From Dehalococcoidia bacterium (GTDB lineage Bacteria > Chloroflexota > Dehalococcoidia > Dehalococcoidales > RBG-16-60-22), in contig DUFB01000066.1 in NCBI GenBank assembly GCA_011192005.1, positions 583-64,582 on the forward strand: a DNA stretch of 64,000 bases, read 5' to 3'. The stretch's first letter is position 1. The number at the start of each line of letters is the position of its first letter. This document shows, piece by piece, positions 9,567 through 46,887 of this stretch. Below the pieces are notes generated by a model. It did no database searches. It was not told the origin of the DNA and saw only the letters and a list, made by a program, of their open reading frames with translations. Both the position numbers and the translations under genes were made by a program.

Positions 9567-9986
9567 TTACTTTTTATTTTTTAATGGTGTCACGTGATAC
9601 CGGCGCGTCAGCATAATCTCCAGGAAGATAACCGGCTTCGGAATCTTTTTAAAATTCAAAGGCCCGTGGGGTAATCCCTTGACAAGCGAAACGATTGCGG
9701 GTGAATCGATGACATGCTTTTCCTGCTCCTCACCAAGGCAAATCTCTATTTCCGCACCGCCGAAATCCCGGCAGTCCATGGGATTGGTACCGAGAAAACA
9801 GAGCAGCTGCTGAAAGTCATCGTGGAAATGGGGTTCCTTCAGCATGAGTTCGGGCTTGTAAATAACCTGGTGCGTAATGATACAATCGGCATCAATCTCG
9901 TCTCCGTGCGCGGATACACATTCCAGCTGATGGTGTTTTTTGTAGGCGTTCCTGATGACATGCTTCCCGTACTTTGTTTCAGCCAT
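9567..9986 (-). CDS. Uncharacterised cupin-like protein, paralog 1 of 4
   Basis: ORF 9567..10025. The ATG at 9986 follows a GGAGG SD. Core sequence EPHFHDDFQQLLCFLGTNP...GGAEIEICLGEEQEKHVI...GLPHGPL...KPVIFLEI is shared with the CDSs at 26971, 34234 and 46465. Confidence 0.75.
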   Translation of the reverse strand: MAETKYGKHVIRNAYKKHHQLECVSAHGDEIDADCIITHQVIYKPELMLKEPHFHDDFQQLLCFLGTNPMDCRDFGGAEIEICLGEEQEKHVIDSPAIVSLVKGLPHGPLNFKKIPKPVIFLEIMLTRRYHVTPLKNKK

Positions 9987-10182
9987 TTTACCTCCTCTAG
10001 GATTTCTCTGATATTTTACATTCATAACATAGACTGAAGTAAATCTATTTTCCCCAAGTTTACTAAAAGCATGAATACAAGTCCATTATGATTGTGGAAT
10101 GAAAAGATCAGTCCGATAAAGAAGGTCAGAAGTTAATATACCGATTATGCTTTATAATGAAGATGTATTATAAAGACGGCGC

Positions 10183-11265
10183 TCAGGCGGGAACCTCAAC
10201 CTCCAGCGTGGTCCCTCGTCCGGGCTTCGAGTCCACGTCTATAGACCCACCCAACAACCAGACACGTTCCTGCATGCCCATCAGTCCAAGCTGGCCGATA
10301 CGGGGAAGGTCATCCATGCTTCCCCGCAGTTCGAACCCCTTGCCGTTGTCACTGACGGTTATCTTTATACCTTTTCCGTTGAACTCAGCCGTTACGTGTA
10401 CTTCGGTTGCATCAGCATGCTTGCTGACATTGTTGAGCGCTTCCTGAACAATCCGGAAAAGCGATAATTCAATTTCGTTGGAGAGCCGCCTTTCCTCACC
10501 GATTACCCTGAAATCGGCAATAGTACCGTCGGTGCTCTCAAGATTATTGGTCAGCGACCTGAGTGCCGGTATCAGTCCCAAGTCATCCAGCAAAGAAGGA
10601 CGGAGATTTTGAATAAAGCTGTTCAGAGATTGCATGCCCTGATTTAAAAGATTCTGAACGTCGTGGAGGGCGGCGGCCTCACTTTCCCCGAAATCGTGCT
10701 TTTTCCTGAGGAGATTGTCAAGTCGGCGTGAAAGCGACCCCAGAATCTGGGCCATATCGTCGTGAAGTTCGCGGGCGATGTACTTACGCTCTTCTTCCTG
10801 TGCCCTGGTTATCTGCTGTAAAAAGAAACGTAAATTATCTTCTAGATTTTTACGCTCGGTAATATCCACCAGAGTTTCAATGGCGCCAATAATTTCTCCA
10901 TCATCATCCTTGATGGGACTGGCGGTAAAATGAAGCCAGATGCCTTTGTCACCCAGATGTGAAAAGAAGTCTTCAGCTTCATAAGCGTCTTCTATTAAAG
11001 GAGATTTTTTGCACTTGCCTTGGTAATATACCTCGATTTCTTCGGCGGAGGCTCCTTCGACGATGAGGTCGGCCATAGAAGGTCTTTTTTCCTTATAGAA
11101 AGACATCCAGTGGTCGTCCTTGCCGAGAACATCTTCTCTTTTTCTGCCAGACAGAGCCTCGACGGCATTATTCCAGTGGGTGATTTTATGCTCTTTGTTG
11201 ATTACGAACAGCGGTATTGCCGAGCCGTTAACGATTTTTGCCAGAGTTTTAGAGCTTAATGGCAT
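10183..11265 (-). CDS. Cytoplasmic PAS-domain sensor histidine kinase (NarX/DegS-type HisKA_3 + HATPase)
   Basis: No TM segment. PAS domain (PLFVINKEHKITHWNNAVEALSG), H-box RELHDDMAQILGSL, and ATPase boxes (ALNNVSKHA, DNGKGF, GLMGMQERV). Confidence 0.9.
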   Translation of the reverse strand: MPLSSKTLAKIVNGSAIPLFVINKEHKITHWNNAVEALSGRKREDVLGKDDHWMSFYKEKRPSMADLIVEGASAEEIEVYYQGKCKKSPLIEDAYEAEDFFSHLGDKGIWLHFTASPIKDDDGEIIGAIETLVDITERKNLEDNLRFFLQQITRAQEEERKYIARELHDDMAQILGSLSRRLDNLLRKKHDFGESEAAALHDVQNLLNQGMQSLNSFIQNLRPSLLDDLGLIPALRSLTNNLESTDGTIADFRVIGEERRLSNEIELSLFRIVQEALNNVSKHADATEVHVTAEFNGKGIKITVSDNGKGFELRGSMDDLPRIGQLGLMGMQERVWLLGGSIDVDSKPGRGTTLEVEVPA

Positions 11266-11312
11266 TTCTTTTATACCTGTGATTATTGGTATTTGCTTTA
11301 ATCACGACGATA

Positions 11313-11981
11313 CTACGCCAGTTCGTCCAGGGTGAGCCAGCCTTTTTTAAGACCAAAGAGAACCGCCTCTGTACGGGAACCGACCCCCAGTTTATTAAAG
11401 ACATCCCTCATATGCCCCTCGACGGTACGATAGCTGAGGTGAAGTTTATCGGCAATCTCTTTATTGGTCAGTCCCCTGGCGGCCAGCTTGATGATATCCA
11501 GCTCGCGGCTGCTGAGGTGTTCCGTATCTTCCTTAACAGAAGGAATCCTGTTCTGGAATTTAAAGTAATTCATTACTTTCTTGGCGATAACGGGGTCCAA
11601 AACGGGTTCACCGTTGTGAATGGCCTTGACGGCACGCACCAGTTCATCGCCGCCGACGCTTTTTAATAAGTAGCCCGCGGCCCCGGCTTTAAGCATGGCG
11701 AAAACATACTCATCATCGTCGTAGGCGCTGAGTATCAGCACCCCGGTATAGGGATTAATTACTTTGATTTGACGGGTAGCTTCAATGCCGTTCAGCTTGG
11801 GCATGGCGATGTCCATGATTACCACGTCCGGTTTCAACTCGGTAACTATTTGGACTGCCTCTTCGCCGTTGCTGGCCTCGCCGATTACCTTTAAACCTTC
11901 CTCATCTTCCAGCAGGCGGAGGATACCCTGGCGCGTTATTAAATGGTCTTCACCCAGGACTATGGTGATGTCACTCATCAA
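11313..11981 (-). CDS. NarL/LuxR-family two-component response regulator
   Basis: Receiver domain (VLGEDH..., VVIMDIAMP, LSAY) plus a C-terminal LuxR HTH (LSSRELDIIKLAARGLTNKEIADKLHLSYRTVEGHMRDVFNKLG). Confidence 0.92.
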   Translation of the reverse strand: MMSDITIVLGEDHLITRQGILRLLEDEEGLKVIGEASNGEEAVQIVTELKPDVVIMDIAMPKLNGIEATRQIKVINPYTGVLILSAYDDDEYVFAMLKAGAAGYLLKSVGGDELVRAVKAIHNGEPVLDPVIAKKVMNYFKFQNRIPSVKEDTEHLSSRELDIIKLAARGLTNKEIADKLHLSYRTVEGHMRDVFNKLGVGSRTEAVLFGLKKGWLTLDELA

Positions 11982-15958: not shown

Positions 15959-18900
15959 ATGGAGCTAAGCCGAAGAGATTTCCTAAAAGCCTCGGGCGCC
16001 GGAGTTGGCGGCATTTTTTTACTTGGTGCACTTAGCGATGGCGTAGCCTTAGCTGCACCGGTAAAACAAATACCGCTTAAAAAACAGGGTCAGGAATTTT
16101 CCACAATCTGTCCTTATGACGGCTCTGGCTGCGGTTTTATCGTCACCTCGAAAGACGGCAAAGTCGTCAACATCGAAGGCGATCCAGAACATCCGGTCAA
16201 CCGCGGCGGCTCTTGTGCCAAGGGAGCTTCAATGCGCCAGTTATCCGCAGATAATCCCTGGCGTCTGACCAAGCCATTATATCGCGCCCCCGGTGCCAGT
16301 GAATGGCAGCCCATGGAGTGGGACGAAACTCTGGATAGAATTGCCCGCCGGATTAAAAACACCCGGGACACCAGTTTTATCGAGAGGGATAGCAAGGGCA
16401 ATATCGTTAACAGGACCGAGGCTATCGCCAACCTAGGCGGTTCGGCCCTTGATAACGAGGAATGCTACCTGCTATCCAAGCTAGCACGGGCGCTGGGTAT
16501 CGTTTACCTGGAGCATCACGCCCGCATATGACATTCCCCAACTGTCGCCAGTTTGGCGGAAACATTCGGACGCGGTGCGATGACCAACCACTGGAATGAC
16601 CTCGCTAACTCAGATGTTCTCATGGCCATCGGTGGTAACCCGGCCGAAAACCATCCGGCTGCTTTCGGTCATATCACCATCGCCAAGGAAAGAGGTGCCA
16701 AGCTTATCAGCGTCGATCCCCGCTTTACTCGGACCTCGTCCAAGGCTGATATTTACGCCCCGATACGCTCAGGTACAGACATCGCTTTTATCGGTGGTAT
16801 GATCAATTATATCCTCAATGATATTGAAAGTAATCCTGGTAATTACAATCTTACTTACATCAGGGAATACACCAATGCTACTTTCTTAATTAATCCAGAT
16901 TACAAGGGACCAGCTGACTTAGAGGGACTATTTTCCGGCTATTCCGGCAGCTCTAATGAAATTGACGGTACTAAAAGAAATTACAATAAATCGACATGGC
17001 AGTTCCAGAGGGATGAAAACGGAATCCCCAAGCGAGACATGACCATGAAGGATCCTAACTGTGCTTACCAGCTCATCAAGAAGCACTTCGAGCGGTATAC
17101 GCCGGAGAAGGTAAACGCCATCTGCGGCACACCCATTGATACTTTTTTGGAGGTCTGCCGGACATTCGCTGCTAGCGGTCAGGTAGGCAAGTCAGGAACA
17201 ATCCTCTACGCGATGGGTACCACACAACACACTTATGGCGCTCAGAACATCCGCTCTTACACCATATTACAGCTTCTCCTCGCAAACATCGGCATCGCCG
17301 GCGGTGGCATCAATGCCATGCGCGGTGAGTCCAATGTTCAGGGCTCCACCGATTATTGCCTGCTATACCACATTATCCCGGGATATCTTAAAGTGCCAGT
17401 TGACTCTGATACAACGCTGGCAAAGTACATCACACGGACAACCCCCACGAGTAATGACCCCCTGAGTCTCAACTGGTGGAAGAATACCGATAAATATATA
17501 GTGAGTCTACTCAAAGCCTGGTATGGTGATAATGCCACGACAAGCAACGACTTCGGTTTTCATTATCTTCCCAAGATAACATCGGGCCAAGATTACTCGC
17601 ATATCTCACTCTTTGAAGCGATGAATGAAGGAGTAATTAAGGGACTGATGGTCTGGGGGCAAAACCCGGCCGTCGGCGGTCCCAACGCCGACTTGGAGCG
17701 AACCGCCATGGACAAGCTGGACTGGATGGTTGTCTCAGATATCTGGCAAACGGAGACGGCTAATCACTGGAAACGGCCCGGGGTAAATCCGGCGGAAATT
17801 GGTACCGAGGTCTTTCTGCTACCCGCCAAGAACTCCTGGGAGAAAGAGGGCAGTGTGACGAACAGCAGCCGCTGGATGCAGTGGCGCTATAAGGCAGCTG
17901 ATGGCCCCGGCGAGGCTGAAGATGACCTCTGGATGTTAGACAAGCTGGCTAAAAGACTGATGCAGCTCTACACCGATGAGGGTGGCCCCAGCGCCGAGTG
18001 TATCAACAAGCTTGACTGGGATTACGGCGATGACCATCCAGATGTACATGCCGTAGCCAAAGAAATCAACGGTTATGACCTGACTACCGGAAAACTTGTC
18101 GCAAGTTTTAGTGGTCTGAAAGCCGACGGCACAACATCTTCAGGCAACTGGCTCTACTGTAACAGCTATGTCGAACCTGATGCCGAGCCCGATGCACCGA
18201 TACCTGGCAACCGGGCCAGCCGGCGTAATTTGGATGATGGGCCATTTAACATAGGTCTCCACGCAAAGTGGGCCTGGTGCTGGCCGGTCAACCGACGTAT
18301 TATTTATAACCGCGCCTCGGTTGACCTTGACGGTAATCCCTGGGATGCTGAGCATCCGGTAATTAAATGGAATCCCGCCAAGGGAGATAGCGGCGGCTGG
18401 GACGGGGATGTACCCGACGGCGGTGCCGCACCAATGAATCAGGGTGGATATTATCCTTTCATCATGAAGGCTGATGGGCTTTCCAATATGTTCGGCCCCG
18501 GCATGGCCGATGGCCCATTACCCGAACACTACGAACCCTGGGAAGCGCCGATTGATAATACAATGTCAAAACAGAAGAACAATCCCGTTTTCAAGATATG
18601 GCGTCCTGACCAGCAGGGTACACCCGATAAATACCCGATTGTCTGCTCAACCTACCGTGTTTGCGAACACTGGCAGGGCGGCCAGATGACCCGCAACATG
18701 CCGTGGGTAATTGAAGCTCAACCCGAACCCTTCTGCGAAATGAGCGAGGAACTGGCCGAGGAAAAGGGCATTGCTAATGGCGATAAGGTCATCGTAGAAT
18801 CGGCCCGCGGCCAGGTCAAGTTTGTCGCCCTGGTCACCAAGCGGTTCAAACCTTTCAAGATGAACGGTAGCACCGTACATCAGGTTGGCATAATCTGGCA

Positions 18901-19021
18901 CTGGGGGTATACCGGCCTTTCCACCGGTGATAGCGCCAATATCCTGACACCTCATGTAGGTGATGCCAACACGATGATACCCGAATACAAGGCATTCCTG
19001 GTAAATGTCAGGAAAGCATAG
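15959..19021 (+). CDS. fdnG: Formate dehydrogenase-N/O type catalytic subunit, Tat-exported, selenocysteine-containing (TGA 16529..16531 read as Sec)
   Basis: ORFs 15959..16531 and 16553..19021 are in one frame, separated only by a TGA. The context LEHHARI-U-HSPTVASLAETFGRGAMTNHW is the conserved Sec/Cys active-site block of FdnG/FdoG. Twin-arginine signal MELSRRDFLKASGAG and N-terminal 4Fe-4S Cys motif (CPYDGSGCG...C). SD AAGGAGG. Confidence 0.9.
16543..16564 (+). promoter_or_regulatory. Candidate SECIS-like hairpin downstream of the UGA
   Basis: UGUCGCC-AGUUU-GGCG(GAA)ACA starts 11 nt after the UGA: 4+3 bp with a 3-nt bulge and a loop containing GU. It is a weak stem and was not energy-evaluated. 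Confidence 0.3.
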
Positions 19022-19045: not shown

Positions 19046-19912
19046 ATGGCAGATAAAGCAATTCTATACGACGCTTCAAAGTGTACCGCCTGCCGTGGCT
19101 GTCAGGTAATGTGCAAGCAATGGAACGAAAACGACGAAGTTATCCCCACCGAGGAAAACGGAGTCGATTCCAGAAACTGGGGCAGCTACGAGAATCCTAA
19201 AGACCTTTCTCCCACTACCTGGCTAAAAATGAGGTTTACCGAGGTTGAAGAAAACGGCCAGATGCGCTGGCTTTTCACGCGCCAGGCATGTATGCACTGC
19301 ACCGATGCCGGTTGTGTCCAGGTTTGCCCCAACGGCTCGCTATACCACAACGATCTTGGTTTCGTGGCTTACAACAAAGATACCTGCACCGGCTGCGGAT
19401 ACTGCATCGATGCCTGCCCCTTCGGCATACCGCGTTCGGACCGCAACCTTCTAACCGGCATAGCCAAGATGGATAAATGCACGGCCTGCACTTCACAGGG
19501 ATATAACCGTATCGAAGCAACGGCGGCTGAGGCTGACGCGATGTACGAAAGCTGGAAAGGGGAGCTGATACCGGCTTGTGTTAAGGCCTGCCCCCCCGGA
19601 GCCCTGAAATACGGATATCGCGATACGTTAGTCGCGGAGGGCAGGGCACGTGTGGATTACCTGAAATCGCAGGGTCGGGGCAATGCCACCCTTTACGGTG
19701 AAAACGAGCTCGGTGGCCTGCACGTGATGTACGTCCTGGAAGACTCACCGGATGTTTACGGACTACCGGTATCGCCGTCAATTTCGGCGGCAACAATCGC
19801 TTGGAAAGATGTCATCCAACCGGTTGGCTGGGCTGTAGGCGGTCTGGCCATCGTCGGACTGGGATTAAACTGGCTGGTAGCTCGGGCCAACATCAATAAG
19901 GAGGCGAAATGA
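19046..19912 (+). CDS. fdnH: Formate dehydrogenase iron-sulfur (beta) subunit with C-terminal membrane anchor
   Basis: Four ferredoxin-type Cys clusters (CTACRGCQVMC, CMHCTDAGCVQVC, CTGCGYCIDAC, CTAC...C). C-terminal TM segment VGWAVGGLAIVGLGLNWLVA. Confidence 0.9.
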   Translation: MADKAILYDASKCTACRGCQVMCKQWNENDEVIPTEENGVDSRNWGSYENPKDLSPTTWLKMRFTEVEENGQMRWLFTRQACMHCTDAGCVQVCPNGSLYHNDLGFVAYNKDTCTGCGYCIDACPFGIPRSDRNLLTGIAKMDKCTACTSQGYNRIEATAAEADAMYESWKGELIPACVKACPPGALKYGYRDTLVAEGRARVDYLKSQGRGNATLYGENELGGLHVMYVLEDSPDVYGLPVSPSISAATIAWKDVIQPVGWAVGGLAIVGLGLNWLVARANINKEAK

Positions 19913-20547
19913 CACAGGTAGAGAAATATAAAAAGCCCGTACGCATACTTCACTGGATTCATCTGGTTGCCTTTGTGCTGCTGTTTTTAACCGGACTGGT
20001 TCTCTTTATACCGGGGCTGGGTTTCCTGGCTGAGGACAGCTGGACACGGGTCATTCACCGTATCGGTGCGGCAGTATTTATCATCGCTCCCCTTATCTAC
20101 TTAATCGTCAAGCCAAAATCGGTGTTGCACGGCATCAAAATGGCTTTCACCTGGGGCAGTGACGATATAGGCTGGATAAAAGCCCTGCCCGCGTACTACT
20201 TCAAGGGTGATGAGAGCAAAATGCCTCCGCAGGGCGAAATGAATACCGGCCAGAAGCTGTGGTGGCTGATTGTACTGGTCTTCGGTTTCCTTCTTGTTAT
20301 CAGCGGATTGATAATGTGGTTTGCCAAAACATCAGCTCCACCGGCGCTACTACAGTGGATGGTGTTCATCCATGATGTATCCTTCATTGTAGCGGGTGCG
20401 ATGTTCTTCGTACATATCTATAATGGACTGTTCCACCCTCTCTTCAACGAAGCCTGGTCCGCCATCTACCGCGGTACAATATCGGAGGGATACGCCAAGA
20501 AGCATCATGGCAAGTGGTATGCTGAATTATCCAAAGGCAAGGAATAA
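19909..20547 (+). CDS. fdnI: Formate dehydrogenase cytochrome b (gamma) subunit
   Basis: Overlaps the fdnH stop. Four TM helices with conserved His residues (ILHWIH, VIHRIG, FIHDVS, FVHIYNGLFHP). Confidence 0.85.
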   Translation: MTQVEKYKKPVRILHWIHLVAFVLLFLTGLVLFIPGLGFLAEDSWTRVIHRIGAAVFIIAPLIYLIVKPKSVLHGIKMAFTWGSDDIGWIKALPAYYFKGDESKMPPQGEMNTGQKLWWLIVLVFGFLLVISGLIMWFAKTSAPPALLQWMVFIHDVSFIVAGAMFFVHIYNGLFHPLFNEAWSAIYRGTISEGYAKKHHGKWYAELSKGKE

Positions 20548-20554
20548 CCAATAA

Positions 20555-24964: not shown

Positions 24965-24978
24965 TATTGTATACTTAA

Positions 24979-25017
24979 GGGGGGTCTCCTGGTAGGCTCT
25001 CCCTGCCGGGAGATCCC
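24979..25017 (+). other. Intercistronic hairpin after the SBP gene
   Basis: GGGGTCTCC (24981..24989) pairs with GGGAGATCCC (25008..25017): 9 bp including one G-U, with an 18-nt loop. Confidence 0.5.
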
Positions 25018-25039
25018 TAGTCCTCACAAGCGAATATAA

Positions 25040-25996: not shown

Positions 25997-26035
25997 CATA
26001 TGTGATATCTGGAACAAGGAAAAAGCTTTAATAAA

Positions 26036-34686: not shown

Positions 34687-35228
34687 TGGAATACTATGAG
34701 ATAAACGTACGTAACCTGAAAACAAGGAAAAAACCAGCGTTAACAGGAGAAACACATCCATTGAAAGAAAATTCAGAACACTTAATATCAAATACACACA
34801 ATACCAACAATACTGAATCCGAAGTCGCCAGAGATTCTGAAACCGGATCATCTGCTTTTCCTCCCCGAGGCCATAATGAAATATCGACAAGAATAGGATA
34901 TCTTCCTTCCCTGACCCCGCCACCAATTCAGAAAAGGAAAGACAAAATCCCGGAGAGGATATACAGTTTCGAGATACCACCTGAGCCAATTCCAGCCAGT
35001 GATATCAAGGAAGAGATCGAGGCCGAAGTAGTTGTAGTCGGCGCCGGAATAGCCGGATTAAGCGCCTCAATTTCTGCAGCGGAAGCAGGCGCCAAGACCA
35101 TCTTGGTAGAAAAGATGGCAACGGTTCAAGCCCGCGGCCATGATAATGCCTTTCTCAATAACCGGCTCCAGAAGAAGCTGGGTATAGAGATTGACAAAGA
35201 AGAAGTTATATTAAATCTGATGAAATAA
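34674..35228 (+). pseudogene. N-terminal fragment of an FAD-dependent oxidoreductase (FrdA/KstD-like dinucleotide-binding fold only)
   Basis: AEVVVVGAGIAGLSASISAAEAGAKTILVEKM is a GxGxxG FAD motif. The ORF stops about 60 aa later, whereas such flavoproteins are normally over 450 aa. No continuation is seen in any frame before the convergent gene at 35496. Confidence 0.45.
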
Positions 35229-37702: not shown

Positions 37703-37797
37703 AAACCGGAAATACCAGCTTTAAATTTGATCAACTTTGAATAACTTGATTAAAGACAGGAAACGCACCTGAGAAAATGAAAAACAAGGGGGAGAAG

Positions 37798-38589
37798 ATG
37801 GCGAATTACGAGACTATCATTTATGAAAAGAAAAATAGTATAGCAAAAATCACTCTGAATCGACCGGAAGCTATGAATGCTATAACCCGAACAATGTTCC
37901 TGGAAATAGGCCAAGCCCTTGATGATGCTGATCAAGATAAAAACGTCAGTGTCGTGGTATTAGCTGGAAATGGCAAATCCTTCTGTGCCGGGGTGGACAT
38001 GAAATTTGCCTCTGAAGAATTAGTCACGATACAGGATCAGCATGATTTTTTCCGCTTAGGTAATAAGATGGCTTTAGAAAAGATGGAAGGTTCAAGTAAA
38101 CCGGTTATAGCCGCTATACATGGATATTGTCTGGCAGGCGGCTTTGAATTGATGATGGCAGCTGACCTTGTTATTGCGGCTGAAGATGCCAAGATTGGTG
38201 ACCAACACATCAATTTCGGGTTGTTTGGTGGCGGTGGCTGTGCTTATCGGCTGGCGTTGCTTGTTGGCATGAGAAAAGCAAAGGAGATAATTCTGACGGG
38301 TAAGCGTCTTTCCGGTAAGGAAGCGGAACAAATAGGCTTGATTAACATTGCTGTACCACCGGATAAACTGGAAAGTGCTGTAAATGAGATGGCAGTTGAG
38401 CTATCCGATAAAAGTCCCGTAGCTGTCAGACTCTCAAAGTGGTTTATCAACCGCGCCTCGATGCTAGATGCCGATACCAGACTTGAGCTGGCTATTATGT
38501 ACTCTCTTATCGATAGTACTTCGGAAGATAAAGAAGAAGGGATGAAAGCTTTTATTGAAAAAAGAAAACCGGTATTCAAAGGTAGATAG
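37798..38589 (+). CDS. Enoyl-CoA hydratase/isomerase (crotonase) family protein
   Basis: ORF 37777..38589. The ATG at 37798 follows an AAGGGGGAG SD. ITLNRPEAMNAI, FCAGVDM, AAIHGYCLAGGFELMMAADL. Confidence 0.9.
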   Translation: MANYETIIYEKKNSIAKITLNRPEAMNAITRTMFLEIGQALDDADQDKNVSVVVLAGNGKSFCAGVDMKFASEELVTIQDQHDFFRLGNKMALEKMEGSSKPVIAAIHGYCLAGGFELMMAADLVIAAEDAKIGDQHINFGLFGGGGCAYRLALLVGMRKAKEIILTGKRLSGKEAEQIGLINIAVPPDKLESAVNEMAVELSDKSPVAVRLSKWFINRASMLDADTRLELAIMYSLIDSTSEDKEEGMKAFIEKRKPVFKGR

Positions 38590-38686
38590 TATGAAAAATC
38601 GGTATATAAACCAGAGCTTTCTGCCTCATTAGTGTTTTTCATCTCAACCCAATATTCTTGGGTGATTATTTAAATTACGTAAAATA

Positions 38687-39931
38687 ATGACATTGCAGAA
38701 CCATAATCAGATCGAGAGGATCTATTTGATACAAGCGTTAGAAGGCTTAAAGGTTTTAGACCTCACACGGTATGCCCCGGGACCTTACGGTACCATGATT
38801 CTGGGTGACCTTGGGGCTGATATCATCAGGGTTGAAGAGGTCGGCTCACCCGCCGGTCGTCGCGCCGACCAGATGAAGGGGATGAATGAAGTTCCACCTC
38901 CAGCCGAATTTGCCTCCCCTGATACTCCCTATTACCCGCTGAATCGTAACAAGAGAAGTATTCGACTTAACCTTAAAGCGCCGGCAGGGCAGCAAATATT
39001 TTACCAGCTCGCTAAAGTAAGCGACGTCGTTATAGAAGGCTTCCGTCCCGGTGTAACCAAGCGTTTAGGCATAGATTACCCGACCCTTAATAAAATAAAT
39101 CAAAAGTTGATATACTGCGCTTTAACCGGATACGGCCAGGATGGTCCGTATCGGGATTTACCCGGACACGATATAAACTATATTGCCAGTGCTGGTGTTG
39201 TAAGTGCTATAAGTCTTCCTGGAAATCTTCTCGTACCGGGGAATCTCATCGGTGACATGGCCGCTGGCGGAATGCAAGCTGCGATCGGGATACTGGTGGC
39301 ACTTGCTGCCCGGGAGAAAACGGGAAAGGGGCAGTTTGTGGATATTGCCATGACCGATGGCGCTGTTAGTATGCTTTGTCTGTATCTCAGTCAGTACTTC
39401 CAGAATGGCACTATACCGGAGCCTGAAGAACGGGTAAGTTGCGGGGCATCGCACCACTATAATCATTATCAGACTGGAGATGGTAAATTCATCACTATTG
39501 CCTGCTCTGAGCCTTGGTTCTTTGCTAATTTGTGCCGGGCTTTGGACTGTGAAGACTTTATTCACCACCAGACAGATGAAGAGAAAGCTGATGAGATAAA
39601 AGTATTTTTTACAAAAAGGTTCCTCACCCGTACCAGAGATGAATGGTTTGATATATTATCCAGAGCTGATGTCCCGGTGAGTAAAGTGTGCACTCTTGAT
39701 GAACTCTCTAAAGATTCCCAGCTGAGACATCGTCAGATGATTCTGGAAATGGACCATCCCGGAAAAGGTAAGATAAAACAGGTCGGTATATCTATCAAGC
39801 TATCTGACACACCGGGGAGAATTAAGAACTTGGGTTCGAAGCCGGGTGAAGACACCAGCGAAATTTTGTCTGAACTTGGTTACGGCAATAAGGAAATTCA
39901 GCAACTAATAACGGAAAATATTGTCGGCTAA
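38687..39931 (+). CDS. Family-III CoA-transferase (CaiB/BaiF/Frc type), copy 1
   Basis: LEGLKVLDLTRYAPGPYGTMILGDLGADIIRVE and GYGQDGPY. An alternative TTG start at 38726 has a better SD (GAGAGGA). Confidence 0.88.
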   Translation: MTLQNHNQIERIYLIQALEGLKVLDLTRYAPGPYGTMILGDLGADIIRVEEVGSPAGRRADQMKGMNEVPPPAEFASPDTPYYPLNRNKRSIRLNLKAPAGQQIFYQLAKVSDVVIEGFRPGVTKRLGIDYPTLNKINQKLIYCALTGYGQDGPYRDLPGHDINYIASAGVVSAISLPGNLLVPGNLIGDMAAGGMQAAIGILVALAAREKTGKGQFVDIAMTDGAVSMLCLYLSQYFQNGTIPEPEERVSCGASHHYNHYQTGDGKFITIACSEPWFFANLCRALDCEDFIHHQTDEEKADEIKVFFTKRFLTRTRDEWFDILSRADVPVSKVCTLDELSKDSQLRHRQMILEMDHPGKGKIKQVGISIKLSDTPGRIKNLGSKPGEDTSEILSELGYGNKEIQQLITENIVG

Positions 39932-40057
39932 CAATAAATGGATAAGAAGTTAATTAAATCATAAAGATAACGGGCTCCTTTAAGCTCAAACGACCGTATC
40001 TATATCTTTATCAATATTTGGATTAGTTTCACACGGTCTGGAAAAGGAGAAATGCAC

Positions 40058-40522
40058 ATGACAAAGCCGTCAAACAGTGACCCAGCGCCTGATAAGCTAC
40101 AAATCCTGGTGCAGGAAGGCCTGTTTTACCAGCCTCAATCTCCCAAAGAGAAACCATATTTAATCGGTTCCAGATGTAGTTTATGCGGGTATGTCAGTTT
40201 CCCCAAACTCATGGTTTGCCCTTGCTGTGTCCAAATAAACACTATGGAGGAAATGCATATTACCGGGAAGGGCAAAATAGATACGTTTAGTGTATGTTAC
40301 GCGGCTTTACCGGGTTTTCAGGCACCCTCCATTCAAGGTTATATTAACCTAGAGGAGGGAGCCAGAATTTGGTCACTGATAACCGGTGTTGAGCCATCCG
40401 ATGAATCATTGAAGATTGGCATGGACGTTGAGTTGGTAATAGGTAAGTTGAGAGAGGATGCCGAAGGTAATGAAATCATAAGCTATCAGTTCAAGCCAGT
40501 AAAGACTGACCGGAAAGGATAA
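40058..40522 (+). CDS. Zn-ribbon/OB-fold DUF35 protein (thiolase small partner, BbsA/ChsH-associated type)
   Basis: ORF 40052..40522. CSLCGYVSFPKLMVCPCC rubredoxin-like ribbon plus an OB fold. Lies 5 nt upstream of the thiolase gene. Confidence 0.85.
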   Translation: MTKPSNSDPAPDKLQILVQEGLFYQPQSPKEKPYLIGSRCSLCGYVSFPKLMVCPCCVQINTMEEMHITGKGKIDTFSVCYAALPGFQAPSIQGYINLEEGARIWSLITGVEPSDESLKIGMDVELVIGKLREDAEGNEIISYQFKPVKTDRKG

Positions 40523-40527
40523 ATAGC

Positions 40528-41685
40528 ATGAGAGACGTAGTTATTGTTGGTGTGGGTATGACCCGCTTTGGGAAATTCCTGGAAAGGAGTCTACCGGACT
40601 TGGGAAGAGAGGCCATCTGGAAGGCTGTTGGTGACGCCAATATCCCGCCAAAGGATATACAGATTGCTTATGTTGCCAATTCTATCGGCTATCAGCTTAC
40701 AGAGCTAAAAGGAACGATTGGGCAGCACGTGCTAGCAGCGGCGGGCTTTTTCGGGATACCGATTATCAACGTAGAGAATGCCTGTAGCAGCGGCTCGACG
40801 GCTCTGAGGAGTGCCTGCCTTGAAGTGGCCTCGGGTAATTTTGATGTTGCTCTCGCACTTGGCGTTGAAAAGCTATTCTGTGATAACACCGCAAGGTCGT
40901 CTGAAGCTATGGCTTCAGGTACACCTTACGCTAAATTCGGCTTTATGTTTCCTGCTCTCTACTCCATGAATCTGAAAAAATGGATGGAGAAATACGGAAT
41001 CACACAGAGACAATTCGCCAAAGTAGCGGTTAAGAATTCAAAAAACGGGGCTCTGAATCCTAACGCTCAGTTCAGGAAGCCGTTATCCATAGATGACGTC
41101 CTGAATTCACGTGTAATTGCCTATCCACTCACCCTTTATATGTGCTCAACCATGGGTGACGGCGCCGCCGCGGCTATAGTATGCACCAGGGATAAAGCGC
41201 GTAAATATACTACTAAACCTCTGGTTGAGGTGGCAGCCTGCGAACTGGTATCGGGTACGGTAACGATTCCGAATCAGCCCCATGAACCTCTTGAAGCCCG
41301 GGCCGCAAGACTTGCCTATCAAAAGGCTGGGGTCGGCCCTGAGGATGTGGATGTGGCCGAGGTGCATGACGGTATGGCGCCAGCCGAACTGATGTTGTAT
41401 GAAGAGCTTGGCCTGTGCAGGGAAGGTGAAGGGGGCAGAATGATTGACGAAGGATTAACAGAAATTACAGGGAAGATCCCGGTAAATCCGAGTGGGGGAT
41501 TGGCGGCGAAGGGCCATCCGGTCGGGGCCACCGGGCTGGCGCAAATAGCAGAAATTGTCTGGCAACTAAGAGGAGAGGCCGGTGAGAGGCAGGTCAACGA
41601 TCCTAAGGTGGGGCTTACTGAAAACGCTGGGGGATGGGTAATCGACGACAATGCAGCTTGTGCGGTAACAATACTGAAGAAGTAA
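40528..41685 (+). CDS. Thiolase-fold protein, SCP-x/BbsB type (pairs with DUF35)
   Basis: 385 aa. NVENACSSGSTAL (active-site Cys), EVHDGMAPAE, NPSGGL. Confidence 0.88.
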   Translation: MRDVVIVGVGMTRFGKFLERSLPDLGREAIWKAVGDANIPPKDIQIAYVANSIGYQLTELKGTIGQHVLAAAGFFGIPIINVENACSSGSTALRSACLEVASGNFDVALALGVEKLFCDNTARSSEAMASGTPYAKFGFMFPALYSMNLKKWMEKYGITQRQFAKVAVKNSKNGALNPNAQFRKPLSIDDVLNSRVIAYPLTLYMCSTMGDGAAAAIVCTRDKARKYTTKPLVEVAACELVSGTVTIPNQPHEPLEARAARLAYQKAGVGPEDVDVAEVHDGMAPAELMLYEELGLCREGEGGRMIDEGLTEITGKIPVNPSGGLAAKGHPVGATGLAQIAEIVWQLRGEAGERQVNDPKVGLTENAGGWVIDDNAACAVTILKK

Positions 41686-41744
41686 GGTGGTTCGGGTAAT
41701 CTGGACCACTGGCAAATCCGGAGTAGGGGGAGATCAAATATATC

Positions 41745-42608
41745 ATGGAAATTAAGAACGTTGGAGTAGTCGGCTGCGGTATCATGGGCTCAGGCATTGC
41801 TCAGGTCTGTGCTCAATCGGGATATAACATAACTATATCGGAAATAAGTGATGAAGTCTTGAACAAAGGACTGAAATCTATTGAAACCATACTTACCAGG
41901 AGTGTAGATAAGGGCAGGATATCCCGGCAAGACAGGGAATCCGTCTTGGCTCTTATAAAAGGTACTACGAATATGGAAGACTTCTCCGATTGCGAACTTG
42001 TAATAGAAGCGGCAACAGAGGACTTGGATATTAAGAAGGGAATCTTTTCCACGCTTGATAAGGTTTGTCCCAGGCATACTATTCTCGCAACCAATACCTC
42101 GGTATTATCCGTTTCTGATATGGCGGCGGTAACCGGTAGGCCTGAAAAAGTGATTGGAATACACTTTTCAAATCCTGTCCCCGTTATGAAGATAGTGGAA
42201 ATGATAAAGACGATTGTCACCAGTGAATCTACGGTAGAAATCAGTAAGCAGTTTTGCGAATCTCTGGGCAAAACCGTGGTAATTACCAAAGACCTGCCGG
42301 GTTTTATCTCTGGCCGCATATTTACACCTTTTGTGCTGAATGCTATCCGTCTTGTGGAAGCGGATATTGCCAAACCTGAGGACATTGATACCATATTTCG
42401 ACTTGGGGCGGGGCATCCTATGGGTCCTCTGGAAACGGCGGATCTTGTCGGTATCGATATCATATACAATGCTGCGAGCGCTATTTACGATGAATTAAAA
42501 GACCCGCAGTATCTACCTCCACAGTTGATGAAAAAGATGGTGACCATGGGCTGGCTCGGACGCAAGACGGGAAAAGGATTCTACACCTACCCTGAAGGAA
42601 AAAGCTAG
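41745..42608 (+). CDS. hbd: 3-hydroxyacyl-CoA (3-hydroxybutyryl-CoA) dehydrogenase, NAD-dependent
   Basis: VGVVGCGIMGSGIAQV Rossmann motif, NTSVLS, and the GHPMGPLETADLVGID C-terminal domain. Confidence 0.9.
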   Translation: MEIKNVGVVGCGIMGSGIAQVCAQSGYNITISEISDEVLNKGLKSIETILTRSVDKGRISRQDRESVLALIKGTTNMEDFSDCELVIEAATEDLDIKKGIFSTLDKVCPRHTILATNTSVLSVSDMAAVTGRPEKVIGIHFSNPVPVMKIVEMIKTIVTSESTVEISKQFCESLGKTVVITKDLPGFISGRIFTPFVLNAIRLVEADIAKPEDIDTIFRLGAGHPMGPLETADLVGIDIIYNAASAIYDELKDPQYLPPQLMKKMVTMGWLGRKTGKGFYTYPEGKS

Positions 42609-42614
42609 TAAAAG

Positions 42615-43919
42615 ATGGGGAAATTAAGTAAGAAATCTACGGTATCCAATAATGAAGGCATGCTCTCTCCTTATCGCGTCCTGGATTTAACTGACCAGCG
42701 CGGATACTTATCCGGCAAATTATTCGGTGATCTGGGTGCGGATGTTATAAAGATGGAAACGCCAGAGGGTGATCCAGGAAGAAGCCTTGGTCCCTTTTAT
42801 CATGATATACCTGATCCTGAAAAAAGCCTGTACTGGATGGGGTTTAATACTAATAAAAGGGGGATAACCCTCAATATTAAGAGAAAAAAAGGACAAGAAA
42901 TATTCAAGCAATTGTGCAGGACAGCAGATTTTATTATTGAGTCATTCAATCCGGGCTACATGGACAAACTCGGTCTGGGATATTCTACACTCAGTGAAAT
43001 AAACCCGGGCATCATCATGGCTTCTATCACCGGCTTCGGACAGGACGGCCCGTATAAAGACTACAAAGCGCCCGATATAGTCCTATGGGCTCTCTCCGGT
43101 CTAGGATTCGTTACCGGTGACCCCGACCGACCTCCAATTAGTCCCGGTTATCCCATCTCGTATTTTTTCAGTGCCATACAGGCCGTGATCGGCTCTCTCA
43201 TTGCCCTCTATAGCCGGGGTATTACCGGCAGGGGTCAATATATCGATGCGGTGACGCTACTCGGACTTGCTTGGGCTACCGGACCGGAAGTACAGGGATT
43301 GTGGCCTACGAACAAACAAATCGTCAAACGCACCGGTAGAATCTGGCCACGACCCCAGGTAAGAGCCAGCGGGGAAGTAAGTTATATTGACGTCCCCCTG
43401 ATATATCCCTGTAAAGATGGTAGCGTAAAATTCTTCCCCTTTGTCGAACCGGGGATGCTTCCGAGTACAAACGGGCTGACTCAGTGGGTCGTTGAAGATG
43501 GCATGGCCAGCGAGACCCTCCAGTACGTCGACTGGAGCACGTGGAACTGGCAAACGGTTACCCAGGACGCGGTAGATGAAATCGTTGAAAGTTTCAGCAG
43601 GTTTTTCATGAATCATACCAAGAGTGAGCTCTGGAATGGCGCCCAGGAAAGAGGTATCCAGCTATACCCCGTTTTTACTCCTACTGATATGCTGGAATTT
43701 CCACAACTTACTGTCCGCCAGTACTGGGAAGAGGTTGAACATCCCGAGCTAGGAGATAATATTGTATATCCCGGTGCTTTTACTAAACTTTCCGACGGCT
43801 CATGTAAAATACGTCGTCGGGCACCGCTTATAGGTGAGCATAATGAGGAAATCTATTTCGGGGAACTGGGATTGTCGAAAGAGGAACTTGTACTTTTAAA
43901 ACAAGATAGGATCATCTAA
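42615..43919 (+). CDS. Family-III CoA-transferase, copy 2
   Basis: YRVLDLTDQRGYLSGKLFGDLGADVIKME and GFGQDGPY. Its stop overlaps the start of copy 3 (TAATG). Confidence 0.88.
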   Translation: MGKLSKKSTVSNNEGMLSPYRVLDLTDQRGYLSGKLFGDLGADVIKMETPEGDPGRSLGPFYHDIPDPEKSLYWMGFNTNKRGITLNIKRKKGQEIFKQLCRTADFIIESFNPGYMDKLGLGYSTLSEINPGIIMASITGFGQDGPYKDYKAPDIVLWALSGLGFVTGDPDRPPISPGYPISYFFSAIQAVIGSLIALYSRGITGRGQYIDAVTLLGLAWATGPEVQGLWPTNKQIVKRTGRIWPRPQVRASGEVSYIDVPLIYPCKDGSVKFFPFVEPGMLPSTNGLTQWVVEDGMASETLQYVDWSTWNWQTVTQDAVDEIVESFSRFFMNHTKSELWNGAQERGIQLYPVFTPTDMLEFPQLTVRQYWEEVEHPELGDNIVYPGAFTKLSDGSCKIRRRAPLIGEHNEEIYFGELGLSKEELVLLKQDRII

Positions 43920-45154
43920 TGGAAATGGACGATACGCAAATGCAGACGCCCCCCTTTGAAGGGATCAATATCCTGGATTTCACCTGGACGGGAACAGGTC
44001 CATTCAGTCTTAATCCCCTTGCTTTTTATGGAGCGACCATAATAAAGGTAGAGTCGAGAGAGCGCCCGGATGCCCTGAGAAGCCTGGGGCCATTCAAGGA
44101 CGGCGTAGCCGCCCCGGAACAAAGCTATTACTTTGCCTATTGCCAGACGGGTAAAAGATATAATATTACCCTGAACATGTCTCATCCTGAAGCAAAAGAG
44201 CTGGTTAAGAGACTTGTAGTCTGGGCTGATATAGTGGCTGACAGCTATGCTACCGGAACAATGGAAAAATGGGGTCTTGACTACGATAATCTGAAGAAAA
44301 TAAAGCCCGATATTATCATGCTGCGTACATGTATGCACGGGCATACAGGGCCACTGGCCGGGCATCACGGTCAGGGATTTATCCTTACCGCTCTATCGGG
44401 AGTCGATTCCATCCTCGGCTGGCCCGATCGGCCTCCGGCTGGTGCTTTCGGGGCTTTAACCGATTTTATTGCTCCCCAGTTTAATTCCGTCTGTCTCATT
44501 GCTGCCCTTGACTACCGTCGCAGAACGGGCAAGGGGCAGTATATTGACCAATCCCAGCATGAAGCGGCGATGCAATTAATCACGCCACTTATCCTTGATT
44601 ACACAGCTAATCAGAGAGACCTCACCCCAAGGTGTAACCGGCTTGACAACGCGGCTCCTCATGGCATCTATCGCTGTCGTGGCGATGACATATGGTGTGC
44701 TATTGCTGTATTCACGGATGATGAATGGAAAAGCTTCTGTAGAATAATCGGGCAACCGGCCCTGGCCAAGGACTCGAAATTTGCCACTCTGTCGCAAAGA
44801 AAGCAGAATGAGGACGAACTCGACAGAATTGTGGAGGAATGGACGGTAAAGCATTCGCCCCGGGAGGTGATGGACCTGATGCAGGCGGCTAGAGTTGCCG
44901 CGGGTGTAGTTGCCGATGCCAGAGACCAGGCAGAAGACCCTCAACTTATGCATTATAACTTTTTTGAAGAGAGAGAACACCCCGTTATCGGTAAAATCCC
45001 GTTTTATCATGGCCCCTGCTTCCGGTTGTCCGAGACGCCATATGAGATAGGTCGTGCTACCATGATTGGAGAACATAACGAATATGTATTTACAGAATTG
45101 CTCGGACTCTCGGACGAGGAATGGGCTCGCTTGATGGCGGAGGGAGTTATATAA
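43919..45154 (+). CDS. Family-III CoA-transferase, copy 3
   Basis: INILDFTWTGTGPFSLNPLAFYGATIIKVE. Collinear with copies 1 and 2 and translationally coupled to copy 2. Confidence 0.88.
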   Translation: MEMDDTQMQTPPFEGINILDFTWTGTGPFSLNPLAFYGATIIKVESRERPDALRSLGPFKDGVAAPEQSYYFAYCQTGKRYNITLNMSHPEAKELVKRLVVWADIVADSYATGTMEKWGLDYDNLKKIKPDIIMLRTCMHGHTGPLAGHHGQGFILTALSGVDSILGWPDRPPAGAFGALTDFIAPQFNSVCLIAALDYRRRTGKGQYIDQSQHEAAMQLITPLILDYTANQRDLTPRCNRLDNAAPHGIYRCRGDDIWCAIAVFTDDEWKSFCRIIGQPALAKDSKFATLSQRKQNEDELDRIVEEWTVKHSPREVMDLMQAARVAAGVVADARDQAEDPQLMHYNFFEEREHPVIGKIPFYHGPCFRLSETPYEIGRATMIGEHNEYVFTELLGLSDEEWARLMAEGVI

Positions 45155-45241
45155 AATATATGTCCCGGTGCTTTTAAGCACATAATCATTCTTCCCGTTA
45201 ATAATAGCCGGCCGGCAACTCCATCAAAGGAGGAAACTGCT

Positions 45242-46390
45242 ATGTTGGACTTTACTTTCACCGAGGAACAAAGCATGATCCGGAATATGGTACGTGATTT
45301 TGCACAGAAAGAGATTGCTCCCGGTTACAAGGACCGGATTAAGGCAGAGTCAATTCCTCAAGAACTCATAAAGAAAATGGCTGATATCGGTCTTTTGGGG
45401 CTGAATATACCGGAGAAATACGGGGGGCAGCCTAAAGACGCGATTACGGTTGGTCTCATTATCGAGGATCTAGCCAGATACGCGGAGGATGCCGCTCTTC
45501 TGGTGTTTTACAATTACGGTCAAGCCAGTTTTGTTATACTAGCCTCTGATGAAGTGAAAGAAGAATGGCTACCTGCTATGGCGCGGGGTGAGAAGATGGT
45601 GATTATAGCCGCCACCGAAGCCGAGGCCGGTTCAGATCTAGGTAGCTTGAGAATGACGGCAAGAAAAGCTGGCGACTACTATATCCTGAATGGCGAGAAA
45701 AACCGAACGTCCTTTGCTTATCAGGGACATGCAGCCGTTGTGTTAGCTAAAACCGACCTTACTTCACGACGGATTACCCCTTTCCTCGTACCCATGGACC
45801 TTCCTGGTATTACCATAGCGCATATCGATGACATGGGTGTTGAGTCCACGTCAGCCGGGATTATATCATTCGAAGATGTAAAAATACCTGAAAAGTATCT
45901 TCTGGGCGATGAAGAGGGTAAAGGCTTTGTTGAAACGATGCGTGCTTTTGATATTAATCGTGTCTTCTTAGCCCTGATGGCGATGGCTAAGGCTGAAGCC
46001 TCACTGGAGGAGACTTGTGCTTATACCAAGCAGCGAGTTCAATTCGGGAAACCTTTGGCCAAATTTGAGGGGATTTCTTTCAAGCTTGCTGAGGCGGCTA
46101 CGAATGTGGAACTGGGTAGATGGCTGTGCTATCGGACTTTATGGATGAAGGATAACGGTGTGAGGCACAGTAAGGAATCGGCAATGGTTAAGTGGTGGTG
46201 TACCAGAAAGGCTTTTAATATCATTCATGATTGTCTGCTTATTCACGGGCATTACGGCTACAGCAAAGACCTCCCCTTTGAGCAACGGTTAAAAGATGTT
46301 ATCGGTGGGGAGATAGGTGACGGTACAGCGGAAATTATGAAGTTAATTATTGCCCGCGAGATGCTCGGTAGAGAATTCCTTCCCTATTAG
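45242..46390 (+). CDS. Acyl-CoA dehydrogenase
   Basis: 382 aa. SD AAGGAGG. ATEAEAGSDLGS, the RVQFGKPLAKFEGISFKLAE region, and C-terminal GGEIGDGTAEIMKLIIARE. Confidence 0.92.
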   Translation: MLDFTFTEEQSMIRNMVRDFAQKEIAPGYKDRIKAESIPQELIKKMADIGLLGLNIPEKYGGQPKDAITVGLIIEDLARYAEDAALLVFYNYGQASFVILASDEVKEEWLPAMARGEKMVIIAATEAEAGSDLGSLRMTARKAGDYYILNGEKNRTSFAYQGHAAVVLAKTDLTSRRITPFLVPMDLPGITIAHIDDMGVESTSAGIISFEDVKIPEKYLLGDEEGKGFVETMRAFDINRVFLALMAMAKAEASLEETCAYTKQRVQFGKPLAKFEGISFKLAEAATNVELGRWLCYRTLWMKDNGVRHSKESAMVKWWCTRKAFNIIHDCLLIHGHYGYSKDLPFEQRLKDVIGGEIGDGTAEIMKLIIAREMLGREFLPY

Positions 46391-46464
46391 GATCGTGAAA
46401 GATTGAATGGAATCACCAAAAATAATCAACCTTAAAACAACCCAAAAGAGGAGAGAATATCAAG

Positions 46465-46887
46465 ATGATAAACAAGAAATATAGGAATCATTTTTTTCAC
46501 AGACCTTTGATAGAGGGCACCGATGTTAAGTACAGGATAGTCATGCAGGGTAGTAAGCACCATTTCGGAGGTCTTTTTCAGAATTACTGGCTCCGGTGGA
46601 ATTGCATCACCAAGCCTGTATCGATGGGTGAGCCTCATACCCATGAATTCGATGAAATATTTCACTTTTTTAGTGCCGACCCTTCAGATATATCGGATTT
46701 TCATGCAGTAGTTGATTTCACGATAGGAGAGGAGCTCGAGAAATATCCTATTACCGAACCCATGATTGTTTATATTCCGGGGGGACTGGTCCACGCACCG
46801 ATTGATATTAAGATAGTTAAGAAACCTATCATTTTCATGAATGTGGCGAACGCACCAGAGTATATTGAGAAACGTTGGGAGGGCTAG
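46465..46887 (+). CDS. Uncharacterised cupin-like protein, paralog 4 of 4
   Basis: EPHTHEFDEIFHFFSADP...AVVDFTIGEELEKYPI...IPGGLVHAPI...KPIIFMNV. Confidence 0.8.
   Translation: MINKKYRNHFFHRPLIEGTDVKYRIVMQGSKHHFGGLFQNYWLRWNCITKPVSMGEPHTHEFDEIFHFFSADPSDISDFHAVVDFTIGEELEKYPITEPMIVYIPGGLVHAPIDIKIVKKPIIFMNVANAPEYIEKRWEG

Follow-up and report, generated by a model that had tools for sequence, protein, structure and literature searches.

The Locus and Its Four Paralogous Genes

The DNA considered here is a stretch of 64,000 nucleotides (the window) from a metagenome-assembled genome (MAG) of a Dehalococcoidia bacterium (contig DUFB01000066.1, positions 583 to 64,582 of the forward strand), in which four dispersed genes, referred to as P1 to P4, encode small proteins that all carry the name 'hypothetical protein' at NCBI (HEY97572.1, HEY97587.1, HEY97592.1, and HEY97604.1). 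These four open reading frames (ORFs) had been singled out in an earlier note, made from the sequence alone, as paralogs of an unassigned cupin-like protein attached to transport or catabolic operons. All of them are present at the coordinates proposed there (Table 1), and pairwise blastp comparisons (37–46% identity over 89–115 residues, E 1e-16 to 1e-25; 44–47% identity between P2 and P3) show beyond doubt that they are homologous. Their alignment contains 19 invariant columns, among them H-x-H, G-x-x-H-x-P, and K-P. Three of the four motifs that had been read by eye are exact in P1–P4, whereas the second (G-x-[VI]-[ED]...) is exact only in P2 and P3, with one extra residue in P1 and A in place of G in P4.

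A strong GGAGG-type Shine-Dalgarno sequence lies 6–9 nt 5′ of each ATG used here ('aggaggtaaaATG' for P1 and 'ggggaggcaaatcaATG' for P3), and these starts are therefore preferred over those of the longer ORFs, at 10025 and 34207. The NCBI entry for P1, HEY97572.1, has the same length of 139 amino acids (aa) as called here. A search with a profile hidden Markov model (HMM) of the family (E ≤ 1e-3) recovered exactly these four intact ORFs in the window. A relic of a fifth copy, a decayed C-terminal part of about 35 aa ('SMIFVHVGVKHCLLILKRTNKPVFHFTIVARPLYS'), was detected within a 43-aa ORF by tblastn with P3 (E 7e-4) and by the family HMM (13.3 bits, model positions 101–135). It sits in a 574-bp AT-rich, stop-filled spacer between an alanine dehydrogenase gene (−) and an Amidohydro_3 gene (+), and suggests that a cupin gene was lost upstream of the P3 module.

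A Predicted Cupin Fold and Metal Site

None of the four proteins gave a usable match to Pfam-A or NCBIfam at E ≤ 10; the sole match was a spurious one to TSTD2_N (E 1.1), and no cupin model of either collection, including Cupin_2 and GPI of Pfam, was matched at this threshold. Ten long or bicupin relatives and six long single-domain ORFs, searched against Pfam, showed only sub-threshold matches to Cupin_2 and GPI and no informative fusions, the bicupins scoring 11–22 bits against Cupin_2 (PF07883; gathering cutoff 27.2 bits) and one of the long ORFs being an artefact that reads into a transposase. The fold was instead indicated by AlphaFold2 models, which are all-beta for both P2 (predicted local distance difference test score, pLDDT, 84.7; predicted template modeling score, pTM, 0.80) and P4 (pLDDT 87.9, pTM 0.82). 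Every top Foldseek match of the two models in the PDB was a cupin with a probability of 1.0; those of P2 included oxalate decarboxylase, MncA, Sthe2323, MarH, TM1459, KdgF, and cupin-type sugar-phosphate isomerases.

Within cupin motif 1, P1–P4 carry H-x-H, an E or Q at +4 (P2–P4) or +5 (P1), and a G 5–6 residues further on, deviating in that the leading G(x)5 is unconserved and Gln takes the place of Glu in P1–P3. Of motif 2, every one of the four proteins has G-x-x-H and three have the full P-x-G-x-x-H core, with the trailing N absent. Across a 38-sequence alignment, H63, H65, F73, E96, G111, H114, P116, and P125 (P2 numbering) are invariant, with either Q or E at position 69. Of 127 family domains from 66 loci, 109 keep the H-H-[E/Q]-H tetrad (E in 65, Q in 44) and 111 keep E96, the exceptions being mostly fragments or one domain of a fused or tandem set. 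A Cys follows the third His in 73 of the 127 domains.

On this evidence P1–P4 very probably adopt a cupin fold with a metal site, the ligands of which are read from the sequence alignment. The barrel would hold a mononuclear metal through three His and a Gln (P1–P3) or Glu (P4), with the invariant Glu (E96) placed on a strand between the two cupin motifs. The view in the earlier note that the HxH motif and a distal His look like a cupin metal site is therefore upheld for the predicted site, as is its inability to name an enzyme class, since the best PDB sequence match reached E 0.016 and neither the profile searches nor, for P2 and P4, the structure searches placed the proteins confidently in a characterized family. 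The family is new within the cupin superfamily and without an entry in Pfam or NCBIfam, and a search of the literature on Dehalococcoidia cupins and cupin epimerases found nothing on it.

Relation to Characterized Cupins

The nearest characterized relatives, remotely, are the cupin epimerases of the MarH/StnK3 type. When the family profile was run against PDB sequences, only 7eqk (E 0.016 and 0.074) and MarH (6j4b, E 0.88 and 0.83) were returned; the same two, 7eqk being a 'non-heme iron epimerase/lyase', rank first among the Foldseek matches of P4 and are among the best by template modeling (TM) score for P2. MarH/StnK3 (6j4b–6j4d), 7eqk, and 7eu6 are likewise small single-domain cupins (about 125–131 aa against 139–150 aa in the window), and P-H-x-H-x-x-D-[EQ]...I-P-x-G-x-x-H is common to MarH, 7eqk, and the window family, with the metal motifs coinciding in the alignment. 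MarH and StnK3 epimerize a beta-substituted 2-oxo acid, working with a pyridoxal phosphate (PLP) aminotransferase, and their cassettes marI-H-G and stnQ1-K3-R encode an S-adenosylmethionine-dependent C-methyltransferase and a PLP aminotransferase besides the cupin (PMC4742848). The P2 gene string also has an aminotransferase. The window proteins differ in carrying an N-terminal extension of 45–50 residues and in their surroundings, which lack a C-methyltransferase or antibiotic cluster and instead offer a catabolic context in uncultured anaerobes; in the four window neighborhoods no methyltransferase was found, and an aminotransferase (class III) only near P2. P1–P4 are not filed as MarH-type epimerases because the similarity falls short of significance, the neighborhoods lack the cassette, and E96 is not shared.

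A broader likeness exists to generic Cupin_2-type monocupins, namely TM1459, KdgF, Sthe2323 (4e2g), and the cupin-type phosphoglucose/phosphomannose isomerases, in the jelly-roll barrel (Foldseek probability 1.0, TM 0.45–0.65), in motif 1 (H-x-H-(x)3-4-E), and in motif 2 (P-x-G-x-x-H). In contrast to these, three of the window paralogs have Gln where Glu is canonical, and no Pfam model was matched. Many enzymes of this group are redox-neutral isomerases. The bicupins OxdC and MncA gave the top Foldseek E-values for P2, and many family relatives are two-domain fusions as well, but the window proteins are single-domain and the identity is 12–16%. OxdC chemistry requires O2 as a cofactor, while MncA is an exported Mn-binding protein.

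Size, Distribution, and Age of the Family

Searching with a profile of the four sequences brought up 459 relatives, none of which has a Pfam domain or a name beyond 'hypothetical'. When 1.84 billion cluster representatives (clusters at 50% identity) were searched exhaustively with the HMM, 1,364 of them matched at E ≤ 1e-3 and 884 at the stricter E ≤ 1e-10; relatives of 280–340 aa with two family domains are numerous. Most members come from Dehalococcoidia MAGs, others from MAGs of sulfate reducers, Moorellales, Actinomycetota, and Acidobacteriota. A single peptide pattern, applied to one genome for each GTDB species, yielded 64 loci, all from MAGs or single-amplified genomes, of which 45 belong to Chloroflexota (Dehalococcoidia, Dehalococcoidales, and 'Chloroflexia' MAGs), six to Thermodesulfobacteriota or delta-proteobacteria, six to Actinomycetota, three to Bacillota/Moorellales, three to Acidobacteriota, and one to Pirellulales. 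With the window and loci L007 and L009 added, the set comprised 66 non-redundant loci, in which ORFs were called and then searched with the family HMM. They contain 116 family genes; at least two are present in 27 loci, same-strand adjacent pairs in 16, and 15 of the genes are bicupin-sized. As relatives are so often fused head to tail or arranged in tandem, a cupin dimer is the most likely functional unit, and the solitary window copies would pair as homodimers.

The longest arrangement was observed in a Dehalococcoidaceae MAG (L021, 15091..17684), an uninterrupted same-strand run of five family genes with two more about 4 kb upstream; at least one of the copies, that at 16190..16645, has lost metal ligands (H-V-V-Y). 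Some of the distant bicupins (P0166, P0197, P0205, P0216, and P0235) have C-x7-9-C-x2-C-x2-C after each cupin domain, a motif in which an Fe-S cluster or zinc may be bound. P0235 also bears a twin-arginine signal (GRRQFI), implying exported members.

Orthologs in other MAGs are 82% identical for P3, 73% for P4, 73% for P1, and 70–77% for the P2 type, with P3 orthologs in other Dehalococcoidales ranging from 70 to 82%. A recent local duplication was considered and rejected, since orthologs of P1, P3, and P4 found elsewhere are 73–82% identical whereas the paralogs share only 37–46%; the four copies are thus ancient subfamilies that share one 37-kb catabolic region. The suggestion of a lineage-expanded family therefore holds for its size and for its frequent multi-copy loci, but not as a local burst.

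Gene Surroundings in the Window

The positions described in the earlier note are correct (Table 1): P1 is convergent on the final ATPase gene of the LIV-type ATP-binding cassette (ABC) operon, with a gap of 47 bp, P2 and P3 lie 3′ of Amidohydro_3 genes, and P4 has an acyl-CoA dehydrogenase gene on one side and a SnoaL_4 gene on the other. The P2 string reads alanine dehydrogenase, class-III aminotransferase, Amidohydro_3, and P2 last, and the same aminotransferase and alanine dehydrogenase set is also present in L074. The two Amidohydro_3 proteins of the window are 49% identical, and hydrolase and cupin may have been duplicated together to give the P2 and P3 pairs. The beta-oxidation set upstream of P4 is Bbs-like with an SCP-x-type thiolase, and its acyl-CoA dehydrogenase is nearest to cyclohexanecarboxyl-CoA dehydrogenase, below cutoff. 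Among the window neighbors, only alanine dehydrogenase scored over an NCBIfam cutoff; the amidohydrolases, CoA-transferases, and acyl-CoA dehydrogenase stay generic. Scans around P1–P4 gave no terminators and no above-chance promoters, and the lack of a terminator-like site between the cupins and the genes upstream of them is weak evidence for co-transcription.

Table 1. Features of the window in order of position.
Feature	Coordinates	Strand	Remarks
P1	9567..9986	−	139-aa monocupin; H53-x-H55...Q60...H, motif 1 one residue longer; family HMM E 7e-49
HisKA_3 histidine kinase and LuxR-type response regulator	10183..11981	−	Upstream of P1, same strand; Pfam
Formate-dehydrogenase-type alpha subunit (putative)	15959..19021	+	Two same-frame ORFs parted by TGA at 16529-16531
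Fe-S, cytochrome-b, and FdhE-like genes	19046..21406		After the alpha subunit
SBP_bac_5 binding protein and two Opp/Dpp-type permeases	23384..26905	+	Convergent on P2; Pfam
P2	26971..27399	−	142-aa monocupin; ligands H63, H65, Q69, H114 (predicted); final gene after Amidohydro_3; family HMM E 1.4e-49
Amidohydro_3	27501..29240	−	Directly upstream of P2, 101-bp gap without terminator-like site; PF07969 E 1.5e-86
Class-III aminotransferase	29316..30701	−	Upstream in P2 string; Aminotran_3 E 1e-94
Alanine dehydrogenase	30775..31884	−	Upstream in P2 string; AlaDh_PNT; TIGR00518 512 bits, over cutoff
Fifth-copy relic	32280..32384 (approx.)	+	Decayed C-terminal part
Amidohydro_3	32459..34141	+	Directly upstream of P3, 92-bp gap; PF07969 E 3e-92
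P3	34234..34686	+	150-aa monocupin directly 3′ of second Amidohydro_3 gene; family HMM E 5e-66
184-aa ORF	34674..35228	+	Overlaps P3 stop; only the N-terminal dinucleotide-binding part of FAD_binding_2
Beta-oxidation module	37777..46390	+	Upstream of P4: ECH, CoA_transf_3, DUF35-OB, thiolase, 3HCDH, two further CoA_transf_3, acyl-CoA dehydrogenase
P4	46465..46887	+	140-aa monocupin; ligands H58, H60, E64, H110 (predicted); family HMM E 1.2e-60
SnoaL_4 (NTF2-like)	46962..47618	+	74 bp 3′ of P4; PF13577 E 2.9e-17; C-terminal PFHYxxPV[ST]GK
Recombinase and Zn_ribbon_recom domains	48316..49341	+	Just past the P4-SnoaL_4 pair; without N-terminal resolvase catalytic domain

Three further features of the window were recorded. 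The ORF that overlaps the stop of P3 probably represents a truncated gene; public contigs carry it too, with a called length of 180 aa. The recombinase-like ORF beyond the P4-SnoaL_4 pair may be a serine-recombinase remnant that marks an island boundary. Finally, the TGA that parts the two same-frame ORFs lies within 'LEHHARI*HSPTVASLAETFGRGAMTNHWND' and looks like a selenocysteine codon of a molybdopterin-dependent formate-dehydrogenase-type alpha subunit, putatively exported by the twin-arginine pathway (SRRDFLK).

Neighborhoods Across 66 Loci

Genes no more than two positions from a family gene (n = 300) were contrasted with genes of the same loci at a distance of five or more positions (n = 367); the p values are uncorrected, several classes being tested, and Pfam was used to check the cluster labels. 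Taken together, hydrolases of three folds were found 17 times near family genes (in 13 loci) and once far from them (odds ratio, OR, ~22, p = 1e-5), namely Peptidase_S15/CocE-NonD (8 near, 0 far, p = 0.0016), Amidohydro_3 (6 near, 0 far, p = 0.008), and COesterase (3 near, 1 far, not significant). SnoaL_4 (8 near, 1 far, p = 0.009) and SBP_bac_5 (5 near, 0 far, p = 0.018) were also enriched. ABC ATPases (3 near, 8 far, OR 0.45) and OYE-type reductases (3 near, 4 far) were not enriched, and BPD_transp_1 was not significant in the 66 loci.

The non-random placement suggested in the earlier note is thus supported as an association with hydrolases (17/300 against 1/367), although its two specific links fared less well. 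Amidohydro_3 is enriched but is not a specific partner, lying within two or three genes of the family in 4 of the 66 loci (the window, L037, L051, and L074), and Peptidase_S15/CocE-NonD, carboxylesterase, and a single beta-lactamase-fold hydrolase (beside a P1-type ortholog in L080) take the same place elsewhere. The link to transport operons was rejected on the figures for ABC ATPases and BPD_transp_1, only SBP_bac_5 being mildly enriched. The adjacency of P1 to the LIV-type operon is an unconserved convergent gene end; among the four loci examined, no P1-type ortholog outside the window lies beside such an operon.

Each subfamily has surroundings of its own. P1-type genes stand beside two-component or LuxR-type regulators in all four loci (the window, L007, L079, and L080). 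P2-type orthologs adjoin Peptidase_S15 and SBP_bac_5 (L077 and L078). P3-type orthologs keep the Amidohydro_3 partner in L074, where the two members of the pair are 75% and 78% identical to those of the window, and have it nearby in L037 and L051. P4-type orthologs adjoin ECH-DUF35-thiolase-3HCDH genes (L009, L061, and L073) and Peptidase_S15 (L061, L072, and L073).

A SnoaL_4 subfamily of about 200–250 aa, with an N-terminal coiled-coil-like segment and PFHYxxPV[ST]GK, adjoins family genes in L007, L029, L032, L043, and L046. The SnoaL_4 gene of L007 (6270..7022) is followed by three tandem family genes, and in L029 and L032, from related Dehalococcoidia MAGs, members of the subfamily flank the family gene on both sides. 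The SnoaL_4-cupin-SnoaL_4 trio of these two loci is followed by a gene that by inspection is Fur-family-like (L029, 11217..11702; L032, 11346..11885). Small recurrent neighbors (c55, c58, c35, and others) were considered as cryptic family members and rejected, as none gave an HMM match at E ≤ 1; by inspection they resemble PNPOx-like, glyoxalase/VOC-like, Fur-like, and Lrp-like proteins.

Proposed Role and Alternative Explanations

Taken together, these results are read as indicating that P1–P4 may be metal-dependent, redox-neutral, O2-independent accessory enzymes of the isomerase/epimerase type that serve catabolic operons, a reading from sequence, models, and analogy to which a rough probability of 0.45 is given as a whole. 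The part of it that makes them catalytic accessory enzymes of catabolic operons seems reasonably probable, while the choice of isomerase/epimerase-type chemistry in particular, which is drawn by analogy, is doubtful when taken alone. Redox-neutral chemistry is proposed because the cupin epimerases are the only characterized proteins approached by both sequence and structure, and because many structural neighbors are metal-dependent isomerases. Independence of O2 is proposed because the hosts belong mainly to taxa of known anaerobes and the window carries a putative selenocysteine formate dehydrogenase and Fe-S-rich oxidoreductases.

Briefly, P1–P4 would be cytoplasmic single-domain cupins that are neither parts of a transporter nor dedicated subunits of a hydrolase. 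A divalent metal would act as a Lewis acid and grip the carbonyl or carboxylate of a 2-oxo acid, a beta-dicarbonyl, or a related intermediate, and the metal-stabilized enolate would then lead to epimerization, isomerization, tautomerization, or elimination, all of them O2-independent. The substrates would be products of the adjacent hydrolase, aminotransferase, or beta-oxidation enzymes, with a separate route for each paralog: amide hydrolysis followed by transamination for P2 and P3, and a CoA-dependent, beta-oxidation-like route, together with the SnoaL_4 protein, for P4, while P1 would stand under a two-component regulator. Metal binding, catalysis, reaction type, and substrates are all predicted here from sequences and structural models.

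Several observations weigh against this proposal. The similarity to MarH and 7eqk is below significance in sequence (E 0.016–0.8) and modest in structure (TM 0.5–0.6, 20–23% identity), and E96, invariant in the window family, is missing in MarH. A cupin site of three His and one Glu fits dioxygenase, decarboxylase, or hydrolase chemistry equally well. The census was made on crude ORF calls, its loci stem from one peptide pattern, and the window that prompted it was counted in. About 80% of the loci have no hydrolase within two genes, and the neighbors are very heterogeneous. Aminotran_3 is not enriched (4 near, 3 far), and a family-wide association with aminotransferases was rejected on these counts.

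Among the alternatives, the one that survives best is an O2-dependent Fe(II)/Ni/Mn cupin dioxygenase or oxidase of the quercetinase, acireductone dioxygenase, or Dke1 type, which would cleave or oxygenate catabolic intermediates. The ligand set of three His and Glu/Gln is typical of such enzymes, and Ni-quercetinase, oxalate decarboxylase, and a cellulose oxidative cupin are among the Foldseek matches. It is nonetheless considered unlikely, given that most hosts belong to Dehalococcoidia, Thermodesulfobacteriota, Desulfatiglans, and Moorellales (their lifestyle being deduced from taxonomy), that the window holds anaerobe-type genes, and that the neighborhoods of the 66 loci show no recurrent genes for ring-cleavage or oxygenase partners.

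The earlier note had also thought of a subunit, and a non-catalytic partner of the adjacent hydrolase, whether subunit, chaperone, or inhibitor, would account for the enrichment of hydrolases near family genes, for the tight adjacency of P2 and P3 to Amidohydro_3, with which they are probably co-transcribed, and for a possible co-duplication of the amidohydrolase-cupin pair. The partner hydrolases, however, belong to three or four unrelated folds (Amidohydro_3, Peptidase_S15, COesterase, and Beta-lactamase), and P2-type orthologs adjoin Peptidase_S15 in place of Amidohydro_3, which makes a subunit role unlikely. The large share of loci with no hydrolase nearby likewise speaks against a dedicated partner, strict conservation of the metal ligands argues for a site of the cupin's own, and cupin-hydrolase fusions are absent among the proteins examined, so that this explanation is held to be quite improbable.

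To a similar degree improbable is a small-molecule sensor or regulatory cupin, comparable to the ligand-binding domains of AraC-type or ChrR-type proteins or to pirin, that would signal substrate availability. The regulators beside P1-type genes in four of four loci would suit such a role, as would the MarR-like, Lrp-like, and Fur-like genes near some members. Two-component genes are, however, abundant in these genomes and the sample is only four loci; most members lie inside enzyme gene strings, and no DNA-binding or signaling domain is fused to the members examined. A cytoplasmic protein for metal binding, buffering, or trafficking, with the cupin site used as in MncA, is very improbable despite the conserved His-rich site with its frequent Cys after the third His (73/127), the place of MncA among the top structural matches, the sub-threshold similarity of the SBP_bac_5 protein beside P2 to the metal-chelate binders NikA/CntA, and the Fur-like gene after family genes in L029 and L032, because all NikA/CntA scores are far under the curated cutoffs, at least ten copies per genome across different catabolic operons are hard to reconcile with homeostasis, and no metal transporters recur in the 66 loci.

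Significance for Uncultured Dehalococcoidia

The Dehalococcoidia of peat, aquifers, and sediments are abundant and mostly uncultured, and are thought to degrade recalcitrant organic matter with a catabolic gene content of which much is unannotated. Comprising over 1,300 clusters (50% identity), with a multi-copy occurrence within catabolic operons and no Pfam or NCBIfam entry, the present family is a concrete annotation gap. The fold is very well known and the family is new, which is not surprising in principle. In its widest and rather unlikely form, the isomerase/epimerase proposal would make the family an unrecognized toolkit of O2-independent metallo-epimerases and isomerases of uncultured anaerobic Dehalococcoidia and of sediment and peat anaerobes, the members of which, paired with SnoaL_4 proteins and with hydrolases of various folds, would channel stereochemically mixed organic matter with amide and ester linkages towards transamination and beta-oxidation, and the tandem or fused copies of which would form heterodimers with distinct specificities. 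The hydrolase-cupin and SnoaL_4-cupin gene pairs are tractable entry points for experiments. Should these proteins be ordinary cupins with redundant roles, the gain would be a new family model for annotation; should they be O2-independent epimerases or isomerases, one step of anaerobic amide and ester processing would be explained and biocatalysts would be added to a well-studied scaffold.

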